A stretch of DNA of 53,624 nt, from positions 1-53,624 of the IMG/VR virus record IMGVR_UViG_3300017785_007857; one strand, written 5' to 3'. This DNA is from a virus (taxonomy: Duplodnaviria > Caudoviricetes). Under the pieces are notes generated by a model. It was not told the origin of the DNA. It saw only the letters and a list, made by a program, of their open reading frames with translations, and searched no databases. A program made the translations under genes and the position numbers. This document shows, one piece after another, positions 33,555 through 51,956 of this stretch (position 1 is the first letter of the stretch; every line of letters begins with the position of its first letter).

Positions 33555-34454
33555 TTGTCAACTGCTATCCCACGCACCGCACCCAGGGTAAACTACCTAA
33601 ACAATCGAGACATTTTAAAAGAAATACATCTAAGCAAGAACACCTATTGTTCGTTTCTTGATCGCAAAACTGATCATCAGTACGACATGATTCTTGCTGC
33701 TGTTGGTAAAATTAATCAAAAAACAGTGGCCGAGGCTCGGCGTAATCGTGCAGATCGCATCAAGCGAGAAACTGGCGAAATCATAGATCCCAAGAAAATT
33801 CCCAACACTGATTTGGTTTTTAGAATCATGACCTGGGAGCATATTCCCATGGCGCCAAAAAAAATTACCAAGGCTGCTGCAAAGAAGTCTCGAGTTGAAG
33901 AGATGTTTGAGTTTGAAGATGACACCGACGATGTTTTAGTTGAATTGGCCGATGCACCTGTGCTAGATCTAGTCTATATACGTGTGAACTTTCCTCCGTT
34001 CTGGCATTATAGAATTGATGGAAACAAAACCCCATTTTTAGTAGGTAAATCGCACTGGAAAGGTGACGTAGAGCAGGGCGAGTTTTGCAAAGAACACGGC
34101 ACTATGACCAACAAGCTGGCGCTGATGTTTCTCAAGTTATGCGAACGCTATGCCACTCGCAGCAACTGGCGTGGTTATACTTACAACGAAGAAATGCGTG
34201 GACAGGCTCTGTTACAGCTGGCACAGATAGGCCTGCAGTTTGATGAATCAAAATCACAAAATCCGTTTGCATACTATACTGCTGCCATCACCAACAGCTT
34301 TACTCGTATTTTAAATATTGAAAAGAAAATGCAAAACATACGTGATGACATCTTGGAGATAAACGGTTTGAATCCAAGTTGGACTAGACAAAATTCTGGA
34401 AAAGACTCAGGGGCAGTGATGTCCATACCGGTTGCAAGTTTCAACGACGACTAG
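33555..34454 (+). CDS. Late transcription sigma factor, T4 gp55-like
   Basis: NYLNNRDIL; NWRGYTYNEEM...FDESKSQNPFAYYT...SFTRILNIEKK; adjacent to gp47/gp46 as in T4-like phages; TTG start. Confidence 0.85.
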   Translation: MSTAIPRTAPRVNYLNNRDILKEIHLSKNTYCSFLDRKTDHQYDMILAAVGKINQKTVAEARRNRADRIKRETGEIIDPKKIPNTDLVFRIMTWEHIPMAPKKITKAAAKKSRVEEMFEFEDDTDDVLVELADAPVLDLVYIRVNFPPFWHYRIDGNKTPFLVGKSHWKGDVEQGEFCKEHGTMTNKLALMFLKLCERYATRSNWRGYTYNEEMRGQALLQLAQIGLQFDESKSQNPFAYYTAAITNSFTRILNIEKKMQNIRDDILEINGLNPSWTRQNSGKDSGAVMSIPVASFNDD

Positions 34455-35485: not shown

Positions 35486-37245
35486 TAAGAATAAAAAATC
35501 TGACTGTAAAAAACTTCATGAGTGTGGGCAATGTCACACAGGCCATTGATTTTGATCGCCGTGATTTGACTCTAGTGCTGGGAGAGAATTTAGATCTTGG
35601 CGGCGATGGGTCAAGAAACGGCACTGGAAAAACCACAATCATCAATGCGTTGAGTTATGTGTTGTATGGCCAGGCATTGTCAAACATCCGCAAAGATAAC
35701 TTGGTCAATAAAACCAACAGCAAAGGAATGTTGGTTAGTTTGGACTTCAGTGTTGCTGGCAAAGAGTACAGAATTGAACGCGGTCGTAAGCCCAATGTGT
35801 TGAAATTTTTTGTCAACAACGAAGAGCAACAAAACGACGACAACGCACAAGGTGACTCAAGAGAAACTCAAGTTGATATTGAACACATCATTGGTATGAG
35901 TCATGACATGTTTCGTCATGTGGTGGCACTCAACACCTACACCGAGCCGTTCCTTGCACTCAAAGCCAACGATCAACGCACTATCATTGAACAGTTACTG
36001 GGCATAACTCAGCTCAGCGAACGTGCAGACCGTGTCAAAGAAGCTAACAAGCAAACCAAAGATGCTATTCAACAAGAAGAGTTTCGCATTCGTGCAGTGC
36101 AAGAAGCCAACAAACGTATTGAAGAGCAAATTAGCAGTCTACAAAAACGTGAGCAATTGTGGTCAAACAAACAAGTAGAAGATTGTGCAAAATTACAATC
36201 AGCAATAGACAGTCTTGAACACATAGACATTGATCTAGAAGTACAGGCACATCGAGACTTGGAAGCATTCTATGACAAAAAGAAAATCATAGACGAGTGC
36301 AATCGTTGGATCAAAAGCATTGACTCTGATGATGTCAAACTTGATCGGCAGACTCGGCAGTTAAAGATTGAAATTGAGAAGATAACTGATCATCGATGCT
36401 TTGCTTGTGGTACTGAGATACACGACAATAGCCTAGATGATGTGCGAGACAAGAAACAAAAGGAACTGCAAGAGATTGCGTTGCAGTTGTTGACCAACGA
36501 TACTCAACGTTCCGAACATCAAAACGAAATTGATGACCAAGGTCCTTTGGGCACTGCGCCTGCTGTGTTCTACGACAGTCTTGAACAGGCATTGAATCAT
36601 CGCAACAGTTTGGAAATGTTACGCAAAGATCTAACAAGTCGCCTAGCTGACACCAATCCTTACAGCGAACAAATTGTAGAAATGCAGTCGCAGGCACTGC
36701 AAGAAGTGTCGTACGAAGCGTTGAATGAACTCAGTAGAGTGCAGGATCATCAGGACTTTTTGATCAAGTTGTTGACCAACAAAGACAGCTTTATACGCAA
36801 GAAGATTATTGATCAAAATCTATCGTATCTCAACTCAAGACTCACTCATTACTTAGATAGGATTGGGTTACCGCACACAGTAAAGTTCCAAAATGACCTT
36901 ACCGTGGGCATTGAAGAACTGGGACGTGAACTAGACTTTGATAATTTAAGTCGTGGTGAGCGTAATCGACTGATACTTTCAATGAGCTGGGCGTTTCGTG
37001 ATGTGTGGGAAAGCTTATATTATCCTATAAATTTGCTGTTTGTGGATGAGATGATTGACTCAGGCATGGATACAACCGGAGTAGAAAGTAGTTTGGCCTT
37101 GCTCAAGCATATGAGTCGCGAACGCAGCAAGTCAATTTGGCTTGTGAGTCATCGTGATGAATTGATTGGGCGAGTAGAAAACATATTGCGTGTTGTCAAG
37201 GAGAACGGGTTTACCAGCTATGCCAATAGTACAGAAATTGTATGA
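35482..37245 (+). CDS. Recombination ATPase subunit, gp46/Rad50/SbcC-like
   Basis: Walker A NGTGKTT, coiled coil with CFAC zinc hook, signature LSRGE, Walker B LLFVDE, SH switch. Confidence 0.95.
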   Translation: MIRIKNLTVKNFMSVGNVTQAIDFDRRDLTLVLGENLDLGGDGSRNGTGKTTIINALSYVLYGQALSNIRKDNLVNKTNSKGMLVSLDFSVAGKEYRIERGRKPNVLKFFVNNEEQQNDDNAQGDSRETQVDIEHIIGMSHDMFRHVVALNTYTEPFLALKANDQRTIIEQLLGITQLSERADRVKEANKQTKDAIQQEEFRIRAVQEANKRIEEQISSLQKREQLWSNKQVEDCAKLQSAIDSLEHIDIDLEVQAHRDLEAFYDKKKIIDECNRWIKSIDSDDVKLDRQTRQLKIEIEKITDHRCFACGTEIHDNSLDDVRDKKQKELQEIALQLLTNDTQRSEHQNEIDDQGPLGTAPAVFYDSLEQALNHRNSLEMLRKDLTSRLADTNPYSEQIVEMQSQALQEVSYEALNELSRVQDHQDFLIKLLTNKDSFIRKKIIDQNLSYLNSRLTHYLDRIGLPHTVKFQNDLTVGIEELGRELDFDNLSRGERNRLILSMSWAFRDVWESLYYPINLLFVDEMIDSGMDTTGVESSLALLKHMSRERSKSIWLVSHRDELIGRVENILRVVKENGFTSYANSTEIV

Positions 37246-37274
37246 AACACGGCACAGATGATAACTAACTCTGC

Positions 37275-37790
37275 ATGACGTCACCTCAAAAAGCCAAAGG
37301 TAATTCCTGGGAAAACACAGTTTGCAAACATCTCTCTGCACTCTACGGAGAAAGTTTCATACGTGTTCCACACTCAGGCGCTTATATTGGGGGGACTAAC
37401 CAACACCGCAAAGAGGTATTGCACGAAGGCCAAATTAGAAGCTTTAAGGGCGACATCATTCCCGGACAAAGTTTTCCTAAATTCAATGCAGAATGCAAAA
37501 GCTACAAAGATTTTCCATTTCATCAACTCTTTCAAGGCACATGTAAAACACTAGATGGATGGATTGAACAAACGATGGACGTCGCTGACGAGGGTGACTT
37601 CAACATTCTGTTCATGAAATTCAATCGCAAAGGCACCTACGTAGCAATACAAACACAGCCAAATCAAACTTCACTACATTTCACCAGGCATTTTAACTAC
37701 GCAACATCAAAACACGGGCATTGGCTTTTCATGGACTATGACCTGTTTTGGGAATTAAACGCAGACTCAGTACGACTGCTCTGCGCATAG
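37275..37790 (+). CDS. PD-(D/E)XK nuclease, Hjc-like Holliday junction resolvase
   Basis: KAKGNSWE...RVPHSGA...GDII...ECKSY. Confidence 0.8.
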   Translation: MTSPQKAKGNSWENTVCKHLSALYGESFIRVPHSGAYIGGTNQHRKEVLHEGQIRSFKGDIIPGQSFPKFNAECKSYKDFPFHQLFQGTCKTLDGWIEQTMDVADEGDFNILFMKFNRKGTYVAIQTQPNQTSLHFTRHFNYATSKHGHWLFMDYDLFWELNADSVRLLCA

Positions 37791-38116
37791 ACTCTGTACC
37801 ACTGTGAGTGGTCCCATTGAGCTAGCCGAGGTAAGGCTCGTTGCCAGCGGATTCTTGGGCGTCAAAGGATAGGCCAACTTAGGCTAAATGATCGCGGCTC
37901 TGTGATAAAAAGGTACAACCGCGGCGTAAGGTATTTCGCATGTATGGGATAACCTGCGTTCCGTTGTGAGTCAAGGCTAGAGTAGGAGGTACCGCACAAC
38001 CGCCTCCGCGTGGAAACACAATCTCTTTATACATGTGACAGTTCGAACTCGGATGATGTCGTCAATTCTTGCCCGGCTTACGGGCAAGTATGACCGAAGA
38101 ATCTAGATGATATCTC
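37791..38116 (+). ncRNA. Putative large structured non-coding RNA of unrecognised family
   Basis: Longest non-coding gap in the window; at least 7 hairpins, two loop-distal pairings (pseudoknots), a GAAA tetraloop, and G-U pairs that work only on the + strand. Confidence 0.65.
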
Positions 38117-38126
38117 TAAAAACAAA

Positions 38127-38169
38127 TGTTGATGAACGCAGTGAATCAACAGATGTGCTCAGCACATCT
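38127..38169 (+). other. Tandem hairpins; the first has ssDNA-type GA/GNA architecture (primosome-assembly/ssi-like)
   Basis: TGTTGAT-GA-AC-GCA-GT-GA-ATCAACA followed immediately by AGATGTGC-TCA-GCACATCT. Confidence 0.5.
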
Positions 38170-39177
38170 CTAATACAATGGTAACACAGGATGATGATTT
38201 GGCACCAATAATTGATGCAATTCAATTGTGTTGTTGGGAAAGGTTTCAAGTTGCCAAGTTTTGATATTGAGATTGTGTTTGTAAATCAAAAAATGTTGTA
38301 AGATTGCTTCCTGAAACACAGTCATCGGGGGTAATTGCAGATGTTGCCCAGAGACTATGGCTGTGACAAACACATCAACATTCAGTGCAAACTCAATGTC
38401 AGGTTGTAATATCTGCTGCCATTGCTGATATGCCAGTTGCCAAGTTGGCCAACGCGAACAATCAATATCAACTTCTAACCACTCAAATAACTGGGTCAAC
38501 ACTGCTGCTCCCATCATCCACCACTGCAAACAATCAATACGGAAATTTTTAAACTTCCAATCTACCAGTGGTGGCAGCGCAGGATCATCAAGAGGTCTAA
38601 CATTGAGAGCCATGTATTCGCGGCGATCCCAGGTGTTGATGCCAAATTCGTTGTCATCAAAAAAAGCTTTCCACCATAGCACTTGGAGAGAATCTGCACA
38701 GTCGGGATATCTGCGTGTTAACCATTCGTGTCCATCACCGCGATCATAGCACTGAAACATTTTTACTGCGGGGTTGATTTCAATGCGGATAATGCTACAG
38801 TTTTTTTCTACACAATACAACACTGCTGCAGTGGTGTCTTGCTGTTGTTGTAGTTTTAATTGATGAATTTTTACGGAATCAAGGTGTGTGACATCCAGTG
38901 CCAACTGTTCACCAACCTTGTCAAACCCTAGTTCTTTGAAATCAAAAGATATATCATCACGGTGGTGATATCTATCTACTAGACATTGAGTGTTGCAGAA
39001 TCCTTCAGGATGTATTTTTTTGTGAGAGTGCGCATTGGAATTCTTCAGCGGATTATCACACAAGGTAGTGCGATCTAGAGTTGGCCAGCCAATATACGTG
39101 TTGTCACCACGTAGATACTTGATACTCCAATCTAAAAATGTTGCACCCAGTTGGCCATGGGAAAACATTGCGATCAT
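38170..39177 (-). CDS. Hypothetical protein, possibly P-loop/sulfotransferase-like
   Basis: 335 aa; N-terminal strand-loop-helix SHGQLGATFLDWSI; weak resemblance only. Confidence 0.4.
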   Translation of the reverse strand: MIAMFSHGQLGATFLDWSIKYLRGDNTYIGWPTLDRTTLCDNPLKNSNAHSHKKIHPEGFCNTQCLVDRYHHRDDISFDFKELGFDKVGEQLALDVTHLDSVKIHQLKLQQQQDTTAAVLYCVEKNCSIIRIEINPAVKMFQCYDRGDGHEWLTRRYPDCADSLQVLWWKAFFDDNEFGINTWDRREYMALNVRPLDDPALPPLVDWKFKNFRIDCLQWWMMGAAVLTQLFEWLEVDIDCSRWPTWQLAYQQWQQILQPDIEFALNVDVFVTAIVSGQHLQLPPMTVFQEAILQHFLIYKHNLNIKTWQLETFPNNTIELHQLLVPNHHPVLPLY

Positions 39178-51112: not shown

Positions 51113-51209
51113 TAAATAAAATTTGTACGCAATTCAGCGTCTTATGCGGTTATTAAACCCACCGCGTAGTGGCTAGAACCCACATCGGACTTCTTTAAGG
51201 AGAAAACAA
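51113..51209 (+). promoter_or_regulatory. Late promoter and structured 5' leader
   Basis: TAAATA 51113-51118, three consecutive hairpins 51127-51183, TAAGGAG RBS. Confidence 0.55.
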
Positions 51210-51956
51210 ATGGGACGTCCTCTCAAAATTCAAAAATATTCTACTAATTCAGGTGTTGGATCGCCAGGTGCAGCAGTTGGCATTGACATTGGCTTTCCTA
51301 ATTTTGGTTCGTTAACTGATCCAGAATTCAACGTCAATCCTACCACACTCAGCAATGCAGACTATCTTGGGGTAGTTGGTGGTTTGCGTACCACTGCAAC
51401 GTCAGCAACCAACCCTATTGTCAAATGTATTGTTAACATCACTAACAGTTTCACAGGGGTAGATGATGGTGTTATTTTGCGCCAAAAAGGTTCACACAAG
51501 TTTTTAGTGGCCACCAATACTGCTATTGATCCTGCTAATGCTGTGGTAGGAGTAAGTGTTCGCATTGCAACGTTAGGCGACACTAACTGGTTGTCCATGG
51601 GTGCGCCTGTTGGTGCTGCGGTTGGAACAATTTTCCAAGTCACAGTAGCGTCAGCAGCAGCAACCTCAGGCACTTGTCAAGAAGTTGGTGTCTGTGTGTT
51701 AGACAATGATTCAACCCCGGCCGCTGGTCTTATGGCCATTGGATTCTCAGTGGGTGACTCAACAGTCACTTACATCAGCAAATTAACCAATAAGTGGTTG
51801 CTGGACTGGACTGGTGGTAACGGATACACACAATCTGACATTACCAGTGATGTTCGTTATGTATCAAACTTCTTCACTGATGAGGGAACTGTTATCAAGT
51901 CTGGCACTGCTGATACTACAGTTATCCCGGGTCAACTTGAAAAATGGACTAGCTGA
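51210..51956 (+). CDS. Probable virion structural protein (MGRPLK N-terminus)
   Basis: 248 aa, G/T/V/S-rich, strong RBS, late promoter, follows the capsid locus. Confidence 0.6.
   Translation: MGRPLKIQKYSTNSGVGSPGAAVGIDIGFPNFGSLTDPEFNVNPTTLSNADYLGVVGGLRTTATSATNPIVKCIVNITNSFTGVDDGVILRQKGSHKFLVATNTAIDPANAVVGVSVRIATLGDTNWLSMGAPVGAAVGTIFQVTVASAAATSGTCQEVGVCVLDNDSTPAAGLMAIGFSVGDSTVTYISKLTNKWLLDWTGGNGYTQSDITSDVRYVSNFFTDEGTVIKSGTADTTVIPGQLEKWTS

Follow-up and report, generated by a model that had tools for sequence, protein, structure and literature searches.

The window analysed here is a stretch of 53,624 nucleotides (nt), positions 1 to 53,624 of IMG/VR record IMGVR_UViG_3300017785_007857, and is a fragment of an uncultured T4-like phage. 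On its + strand, a gene for a gp55-like late sigma factor (33555-34454; PHROG match) is followed on the 3′ side by gp47 (Metallophos) and gp46 (AAA_23/SMC_N), and then by a PDDEXK_15 nuclease gene (37275-37790), the last gene before a gap. Beyond the gap, a convergent block on the − strand encodes a 335-amino-acid protein, a DUF6614 protein and a T4 baseplate protein. The interval between the two blocks, 37791-38169 (379 nt), is free of open reading frames (ORFs) and is the largest internal interval of this kind in the window. Comparison with related sequences shows that it is a conserved, non-coding, structured RNA of the + strand. An earlier inspection of the window, made from its letters alone and referred to below as the sequence-only reading, had proposed a large pseudoknotted RNA in what it took to be the only gap of about 380 nt. 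It is indeed the largest; the runner-up, at 2383-2700 (318 nt), is likewise ORF-free, in a window 95% covered by ORFs of at least 60 amino acids, and had no Rfam match at the gathering threshold.

Relatives of the element were collected from IMG/VR in two sets. The nuclease-anchored set held 80 loci retrieved with the nuclease protein, out of 537 candidates, and the pattern-anchored set held at least 120 further viral stretches, retrieved with a 20-letter IUPAC pattern of P9, the most conserved hairpin. The element was found by nhmmer in 60 of the 80 nuclease-anchored loci, always in the same orientation. Among the pattern matches listed, the RNA was present in 112 of 120 viral stretches, and overall nhmmer placed it in 174 of the 200 loci fetched. 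A covariance model of its 3′ part (R1; unit A to P14 of the structure described below), built from 40 phage sequences only, the window among them, recovered five more out of 18 nuclease loci that nhmmer had missed. The P9 pattern was also matched in bacterial genome contigs, where none of 120 among the matches listed held the RNA; these were chance matches, many with titles of G+C-rich taxa, and they do not imply that the RNA is absent from bacteria. Three family members compared by blastn with 50,697 cultured-phage records gave no match, and the nearest cultured phages carry nucleases only 42-46% identical to that of the window.

The interval shows no sign of coding. No conserved ORF crosses the element in the nuclease-anchored loci, where ORFs over it are sporadic. 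The longest stop-free run has a median of 65 codons, the same as in shuffled sequences, and element lengths modulo 3 are distributed as 26/34/17. A small protein gene was accordingly rejected, as stop-free runs equal those of shuffles, length differences are not multiples of three and no frame is conserved. A mini-ORF that would begin with the ATG in unit B was also rejected, as its start varies between ATG, GTG and CTG and its frame differs among relatives.

Pairing in the RNA was examined both by folding energy and by comparison. The minimum free energy (MFE) of the + strand was -115.7 kcal/mol, with a z-score of -1.0 and 19 of 100 shuffles as good; the z-score of the − strand was -1.2. Folding is therefore no better than in shuffled controls, an outcome that the sequence-only reading had named as counting against a structured RNA. 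The element is still held to be real despite this result, because the comparative evidence outweighs it. RNAalifold applied to 25 sequences returned 55 pairs, 33 of them with compensatory changes. A larger MAFFT alignment, not fitted to structure, comprised 77 sequences including the window, each representing a cluster in which sequences at least 96% identical over at least 300 nt had been collapsed. On it we wrote a structure of 93 pairs in 19 helices (some P elements being split in two), with two pseudoknots. Standard pairs occupied 92.5% of the cells, compared with 79.7% after column shuffling and 34-44% when partners were slid, and changes on both sides were seen at 73 of the 93 pairs. The covariation score was 0.374; shuffling gave 0.158 and sliding the partners gave no more than 0.074, and none of 500 shuffles reached any of the five measures. 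Of 7161 cells, 946 were G-U or U-G and 120 were A-C or C-A. This excess of G-U over A-C cells indicates that the folded strand is the + strand, in agreement with the strand called from the window alone. The comparison of relatives that had been proposed as a check, by collecting and aligning the interval and scoring its covariation, thus bore out the RNA, with conservation in 174 of 200 loci and compensatory changes at 73 pairs.

The covarying pairs indicate an overall fold of about 14 helices, with a 5′ domain of P1-P6 and a 3′ core of P7, PK1, PK2, Px, P9, P10 and P12-P14, closed by P4. PK1/P9, Px, PK2, unit A, P12, unit B, P13 and P14, the parts by which the wider family is recognised, all occur in the window in this order and covary. 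Every hairpin listed in the sequence-only reading was found within one base of where it had been placed, and each is kept in relatives except for one extension of P12; the hairpins now called P1, P3 (tip), P6, P7, P9 and P10 and both pseudoknots had all been drawn there. All parts lie on the + strand.

In the 5′ domain, P1 (ACCACT/AGTGGT, 37798-37812) is the first helix and lies just 3′ of the nuclease stop codon; it comprises helices 1 and 2 of the alignment, 88-91% paired, with changes on both sides at 6/6 pairs. P2 pairs CCCA (37813-16) with TGGG (37856-59) and encloses a conserved ATTGAG and P3 (helix 3, 37813-37859; 100% paired, 4/4 compensatory). P3 itself (37821-37848) has a fully paired base (helix 4) and an interior that differs between subgroups; its tip is the CGAG/CTCG hairpin. 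The 5′ strand of P4, GTCA (37861-37864; helix 5), makes a long-range pairing with TGAC at 38091-94 or, alternatively, TGAC at 38036-39. Changes in P4 are mostly to G-U, and one of its four pairs has changes on both sides. P5 (37871-37885; helix 6) has a conserved AACTTA loop and is 87.6% paired, with 3/5 compensatory pairs and a MAFFT register shift in the window's subgroup. P6 (37893-37924; helices 7-8, 99.4% and 96.9% paired) consists of CGCGG/CCGCG (37893-37923) and an inner TGTG/TACA around a conserved A-rich loop, which reads GATAAAAAGG in the window and GAAAAAGA in the family consensus. Its column pair 145-175 has the highest mutual information of the alignment. Upstream of this domain, the complementarity CGCAGA/TCTGCG that had been noted in the last nuclease codons exists at 37760-65/37780-85, one base from where it had been drawn. 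Similar complementarity occurs in several of 25 relatives in a shifting register and overlaps conserved codons, so its conservation is confounded by coding.

The 3′ core begins with P7 (37925-37958; helix 9), a long hairpin of 13 pairs that is 91.7% paired, with 11 both-side changes. Its loop (CATGTAT, 37939-37945) is the 5′ strand of PK2, whose 3′ strand is ATACATG (38029-38035; helix 10). In the MAFFT alignment PK2 is misregistered and 79% paired, and for this reason it was tested sequence by sequence. Over 37 distinct loops, the mean longest helix was 7.35 bp with a loop's own partner, 4.77 bp with the partners of other sequences and 4.64 bp with shuffled ones, and a helix of at least 6 bp was present in 69 of the 77 sequences. 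PK1 pairs GTTGTG (37963-37968) with CACAAC (37995-38000) in the loop of P9 (helix 11); all cells are paired, 4/6 pairs have compensatory changes, and variants replace GTTGTG/CACAAC with GTTGAT/GTCAAC, GTTGCG/CGCAAC or GTCAG/CTGAC. Px pairs TAGAG (37978-82) with CTCTT (38023-27) and encloses P9 and P10 (helix 12, 37978-38027; 93.8% paired, 4/4 compensatory). P9 (GGAGGT/GCCTCC, 37985-38007; helix 13) is 100% paired and, with the 3′ strand of PK1 in its loop, is the most conserved stretch of the family. Its two strands, GGAGGT and GCCTCC, resemble a Shine-Dalgarno and an anti-Shine-Dalgarno sequence paired together, which may be chance. P10 (GTG-GAAA-CAC, 38010-38019; helices 14-15, 73-83% paired, with compensatory changes) is a variable arm with a cap that is often of GNRA type and with large insertions in some relatives.

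Downstream of PK2, P12 is flanked by unit A (TGAC...ACTCGGATGATG, 38036-38058) and unit B (TGAC...ATCTAGATGATA, 38091-38112), which are copies of one direct repeat of about 22 nt inside the RNA, and the TGAC of unit B is the 3′ strand of P4. P12 is the hairpin CTTGCCCG-GCTTA-CGGGCAAG at 38068-38088 (helix 16; 88.5% paired, 5/8 compensatory), the shortfall in pairing being partly due to a one-column register shift in the window's subgroup. The hairpin had been recognised in the sequence-only reading with a further GTCA..TGAC stem; the CTTGCCCG/CGGGCAAG part stands, and we rejected the local extension, which is not conserved in the alignments, since TGAC 38091-94 pairs instead with GTCA 37861-64. 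After unit B, an A-rich linker (38113-38127) varies in length and sequence and holds an extra hairpin in some relatives. P13 (38128-38150; helices 17-18, 95.8% and 99.3% paired, 8/8 compensatory) has a 6-bp stem, a tandem G-A internal loop, 2 bp and an apical loop that is GNNA in most relatives and a 3-nt GCA in the window. The terminal hairpin P14, AGATGTGC-TCA-GCACATCT (38151-38169; helix 19, 89.3% paired, 7/8 compensatory), abuts the stop codon (38170-72) of the convergent gene.

Units A and B behave unusually. Two positions within ...RGATGAT... have changed many times among close relatives, identically in both copies. At the first position, 46 sequences have A in both units and 30 have G in both, the one exception being the window itself (G in unit A, A in unit B; n=77); at the second, both units have G in 57 sequences and A in 20 (n=77). 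Mutual information between the copies was 0.83-0.88 and the next best column reached 0.26, so there is no third covarying column. A third position behaves likewise across subtypes (GATGATG/GATGATA, GATGAAG/GATGAAA and GATGAGG/GATGAGA), and the rare variants GCTGA, GACGA and GTCGGA and the bacterial GCGAA are present in both copies. Several explanations based on pairing were rejected. On inspection of the alignment, antiparallel pairing of unit A with unit B through tandem G-A pairs misfits some variants, as do hairpins inside each unit or pairing between spacers, and a shared third strand was discarded as no third column co-varies. The identity of the two copies would fit recognition of both sites by a single factor, or a single contact that alternates between them.

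Two sets of pairings compete. Segment X (GTCAAGG, 37970-37976) repeats the sequence found in the 3′ strand of lower P12, complements CTTG at 38068-71, and is 95-97% paired with the 5′ strand of P12; its pairs with that strand have both-side changes in 24, 16 and 13 sequences. X:P12 and lower P12 are mutually exclusive, as they share one 5′ strand. The GTCA of P4 pairs about equally with the TGAC of unit A (93%) and that of unit B (95%). The competition between X and P12, the dual partner of P4 and the twin units together suggest that the RNA may have two alternative folds.

These features also bear on whether the RNA is a ribozyme, whose active site would be built from the pseudoknots and the many invariant unpaired bases, and in which the twin units would be cleavage or ligation sites, the P12 hairpin RNA being excised, circularised or rearranged. 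Its complexity resembles that of known large ribozymes, with a structure of 93 pairs and invariant single-stranded CCGTTG and GGTAC..ACCGCC; the identically co-varying sites flank a conserved hairpin, and mutually exclusive pairings occur in multi-step ribozymes. However, no ribozyme family of Rfam 15 was matched at E ≤10, and the RNA-library data consist of contigs only, without read ends. The likeness of P13 to a hammerhead is superficial, as only the GA/GAA internal loop is conserved and 'CUGAUGA' covaries as an ordinary stem. P13 was rejected both as a hammerhead core and as a group II domain V, since its letters covary as a plain stem and have no Rfam match. We consider a ribozyme rather unlikely.

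The whole window was searched against Rfam 15 at the gathering threshold, and 37600-38350 also at E ≤10. The latter segment gave no match at either level; RNase P RNA, group I and II introns, self-cleaving ribozymes, GOLLD, ROOL, OLE, HEARO and raiA were all without a match there at E ≤10. ARAGORN found no tRNA or tmRNA in the whole window, and with no such match in Rfam either, the sequence-only reading was right that the element lacks the hallmarks of tRNA, tmRNA, RNase P and introns. The sole Rfam match of the window lies elsewhere, a full-length RF02980 (freshwater-2) RNA at 51125-51212 on the + strand (70.8 bits; gathering 49.9). A literature search for 'freshwater-2' found nothing relevant.

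Some close relatives align with the window only from the 5′ strand of PK1 onward. In one such locus, L002, the nuclease is 81% identical to that of the window and yet the 5′ domain is of another type. When ten related loci were searched at E ≤1, RF01718 (Polynucleobacter-1) was the only Rfam family matched, over its full model (1-141), with 120.5 bits in L002 and 103.2 bits in L018; the window itself falls below the gathering threshold of that family (37 bits) and gave no match to it even at E ≤10. Among the 174 loci, 122 have a 5′ domain of type 1 (that of the window), 20 of type 2 (RF01718), including L002, and 32 another or a shortened one. In all 20 viral loci with a type-2 5′ domain, the shared core follows 36-75 nt later. 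The alignments thus indicate that the family consists of one shared 3′ core with interchangeable 5′ domains, and that the catalogued 141-nt RF01718 is one optional domain of an RNA of 380-500 nt. Neither the shared core nor the 5′ domain of the window is represented in Rfam 15. The element had been called undescribed, and this holds for these two parts; the 5′ domain of a sister subtype, by contrast, is RF01718. In the literature searched, the larger RNA was not described and Polynucleobacter-1 was named in Weinberg et al. 2010 alone. The accessible text of Fremin et al. 2023 (PMC10690425) reports structured RNAs of 29-151 nt from IMG/VR, and fragments of the window's RNA may be among those motifs.

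The genes around the RNA were compared for evidence of a partner. Upstream context could be judged in 85 of the 112 pattern-anchored loci, a sample blind to the nuclease and subject to the limit, as above, of matches listed. The nuclease lay within 1.5 kb upstream in 16 of these 85, gp46 abutted the RNA in 23, and none of the window's proteins was detected upstream in 45; a baseplate gene lay directly downstream in 36 of 86. The RNA is thus not an appendage of the nuclease, as the nuclease is upstream in only 16 of 85 loci chosen without regard to it. In several nuclease-anchored loci, moreover, a gene of 270-350 amino acids separates the nuclease from the RNA. Such a + strand gene, without a family match, was seen in L001, L003-L006, L008, L014, L020, L021, L031, L060, L042 and L013. 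The 335-amino-acid gene 3′ of the RNA is homologous in the window and L003 and also has no family match; the gene inserted upstream in L003 is unrelated to it. A transposon-type RNA-guided nuclease was considered as a partner and rejected, as there is no sign of one, the 335-amino-acid gene having no family match and no relation to the L003 insert.

Under one option of the sequence-only reading, the RNA would serve the neighbouring PD-(D/E)XK nuclease as a partner (considered here as a guide) or scaffold. The two are directly adjacent in the window, but elsewhere gp46 or other genes abut the RNA, extra genes intervene in several loci, and none of the genes scanned near three bacterial copies matched a nuclease family of this kind in Pfam. 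Partnership with this nuclease is largely refuted by the context counts, and we now regard it as most improbable.

The constant feature of the context is a convergent junction, with the RNA on the strand of the gp55-gp47-gp46 block: in 57 of 60 nuclease-anchored loci, the first ORF 3′ of the RNA is read from the opposite strand. A riboswitch or 5′ leader was rejected for the phage copies on this ground, and no downstream gene would be regulated in cis by the phage RNA because no same-strand gene follows. A scan for sigma-70-like promoters found none in the gap, and a scan of 37000-38800 for intrinsic terminators (a G+C-rich hairpin followed by a T run) found no site on either strand. In two metatranscriptome assemblies, from a lake and a river, contigs identical to 37715-37897 and 38111-38261 were present (share 0.05; no strand), and the metatranscriptome contigs also held the P9 region of a relative; stretches without cover are uninformative. 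One RNA-library contig bridges the 3′ end of the nuclease gene and the element.

This setting raises the alternative that the element acts in cis at the 3′ end of the gp55-gp47-gp46(-nuclease) mRNA, as a shield against 3′ exonucleases and, together with an antisense RNA, as an insulator between convergent units. The position of the RNA at a convergent junction with P14 abutting the opposite stop codon is consistent with this, as are the contig spanning the nuclease 3′ end and the element, and the − strand, on which a T-rich run, complementary to the A-rich linker, comes after the complement of P13. On the other hand, some 14 helices, two pseudoknots and invariant unpaired bases exceed the needs of a stabiliser or terminator, and the terminator scan was empty on both strands. 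The bacterial copies described below, moreover, do not lie at 3′ ends; they lie downstream of a promoter-like, TAAATAA-like box and before unrelated genes. A 3′ element of this kind therefore seems unlikely to us.

An RNA of a replication origin had also been suggested. In the form considered here, the transcript would form a persistent R-loop, the repeat units would resemble iterons and the A-rich linker would serve as an unwinding element. The RNA does adjoin recombination and replication genes, and its direct repeats evolve in concert as iterons do, with an A-rich stretch after unit B. Yet there are just two short repeats, selection acts strongly on RNA pairing, G-U pairs included, and the bacterial copies are not tied to replication genes. 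No origin signature was found among the features examined, which did not include GC skew. To our knowledge, no known T4 origin needs such an RNA fold. We judge an origin RNA very unlikely.

Homologues of the RNA were found in bacteria through RF01718. Of the 151 Burkholderiales genomes sampled, three, each 1.8-1.9 Mb in size, had a match exceeding the cut-off of that family, and one further match was weaker. Its occurrence is sporadic, in one of 33 genomes of one family and two of seven of one genus. 3′ of the motif, the bacterial loci carry, in order, PK1 as GTTTC/GAAAC, a P9-like block, unit A, a hairpin, unit B, P13 and P14. Model R1, trained on phage sequences as stated, scored bacterial loci at 33 bits (E 2e-5; L322) and 23 bits (E 0.002). 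A DUF6641 gene is divergent from the RNA in all three bacterial loci with context. In L326 (G052:C4:64000-80000), the RNA copy lies between a Zorya-type gene pair, for ZorC (EH_Signature) and ZorD (SNF2 plus Mrr nuclease), and a tyrosine integrase gene, and a gene for a 224-amino-acid protein without a family is also there. The second locus has DUF6641 and type III restriction-modification genes beside the RNA, and the third has housekeeping genes and a contig end. These few cases show that the RNA is not confined to phages and that it travels with island DNA. They suggest that its association is with mobile or defence islands and not with replication genes.

DUF6641 itself was present at 24 loci in 14 of 401 sampled genomes. 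Sequence was sufficient at 22 of these loci; 7 of them have a 3′ module of the P13-P14 type on the strand divergent from DUF6641, and four of these seven differ upstream. In L330, L331, L337 and L352, the divergent strand carries a short ORF and then about 350 nt of conserved sequence, apparently structured, with P13-P14 at its end and no Rfam family match. This stretch may belong, as a further member, to a broader group of RNAs that have the 3′ module in common. Between DUF6641 and the RNA, a conserved AT-rich TAAATAA-like box stands a few bases before the RNA in L329, L347, L337, L330, L331, L352 and L351. From its letters it looks like a promoter -10 region, and nothing comparable is seen in the phage copies.

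Taken together, these observations lead us to favour, at about an even chance, an autonomous RNA with a role in trans. It would probably work together with a protein that recognises the twin units, and it may switch between two folds. The gene at 37791-38169 would yield, from the + strand, a stable RNA of about 380 nt. In the phage, it would have no promoter of its own and would be made as the tail of a rightward gp55-gp47-gp46-nuclease transcript. It would most likely be the RNA part of a ribonucleoprotein (RNP), its twin ...RGATGAT... units being read by one lineage-specific factor. The units would always change identically because a single factor reads both. The RNA would probably toggle between two folds, with X exchanging for the 3′ strand of P12, and the 5′ strand of P4 pairing with the TGAC of either unit.

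Several points weigh against this autonomous, trans-acting RNA. The MFE z-scores are not significant on either strand. The support from RNA libraries consists of contigs without strand, ends or abundance, and DNA carry-over is possible. The two-state idea comes from covariation alone, and the competing pairings might each arise at a separate stage of folding or in ways not captured by the modelling. No partner protein emerged: DUF6641, which neighbours the RNA consistently in bacteria, is missing from the window and was not found in one scan of viral contigs. In one bacterial locus a same-strand gene follows closely after the RNA, and in the other two same-strand ORFs lie just downstream, so that the RNA may act in cis in bacteria; the label given to Polynucleobacter-1 in a table of Weinberg et al. 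2010 (PMC2864571) is probably cis-regulatory.

In whichever way it acts, the orphan Polynucleobacter-1 motif is now placed as an optional domain of a much larger RNA. That RNA is common among uncultured T4-like phages, at the frequency given above for the fetched loci, and it connects phage copies with bacterial ones, of which two have defence genes next to them. Two internal sites that mutate identically and two pairs of mutually exclusive pairings are unusual features, and RNAs of such size and complexity are rare. Of the large RNA classes known earlier, most have proved to be ribozymes or the cores of RNPs and, in recent cases, assemblies of RNA alone. A bolder possibility, improbable in our estimation, is that freshwater T4-like phages and small-genome Burkholderiales, the latter in mobile or defence islands, share a new class of large catalytic or switching RNA, in which a conserved double-pseudoknot engine with exchangeable 5′ specificity domains, Polynucleobacter-1 among them, would go with twin sites at which the RNA is cut, rejoined or read, and which would serve in the conflict of phages with host defence or competing mobile elements.

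Among known systems, ColE1 RNA II, to which the element had been compared, offers a functional analogy only. Both are long folded transcripts adjoining replication functions, but no antisense partner, promoter or origin signature was found here, and the family also occurs away from replication genes. The relation to Polynucleobacter-1 is closer. The accessible text of Weinberg et al. 2010 (PMC2864571) describes that motif as a likely RNA, likely cis-regulatory, from Burkholderiales and from fresh water or estuary. It corresponds to the 5′ domain of the sister type-2 RNAs, whose core is shared with the window, and the habitat label, fresh water and Burkholderiales, is the same. It differs in that RF01718 covers 141 nt of an RNA of about 380-500 nt, that the window's 5′ domain is another one, and that PK1, PK2, the twin units and the P12-P14 core lie outside every Rfam model. 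The cis-regulatory label of RF01718 does not fit in phage, because no same-strand gene follows the RNA there. GOLLD and ROOL, according to the accessible text of a cryo-EM preprint (10.1101/2024.12.08.627333), are large, ornate, pseudoknotted RNAs of phages and bacteria found by comparative genomics. Although the window's RNA is smaller (about 380 nt), lacks an Rfam match and stands in a window with no tRNAs, it resembles them in being a large pseudoknotted RNA that occurs in both phages and bacteria and came to light through comparative genomics.

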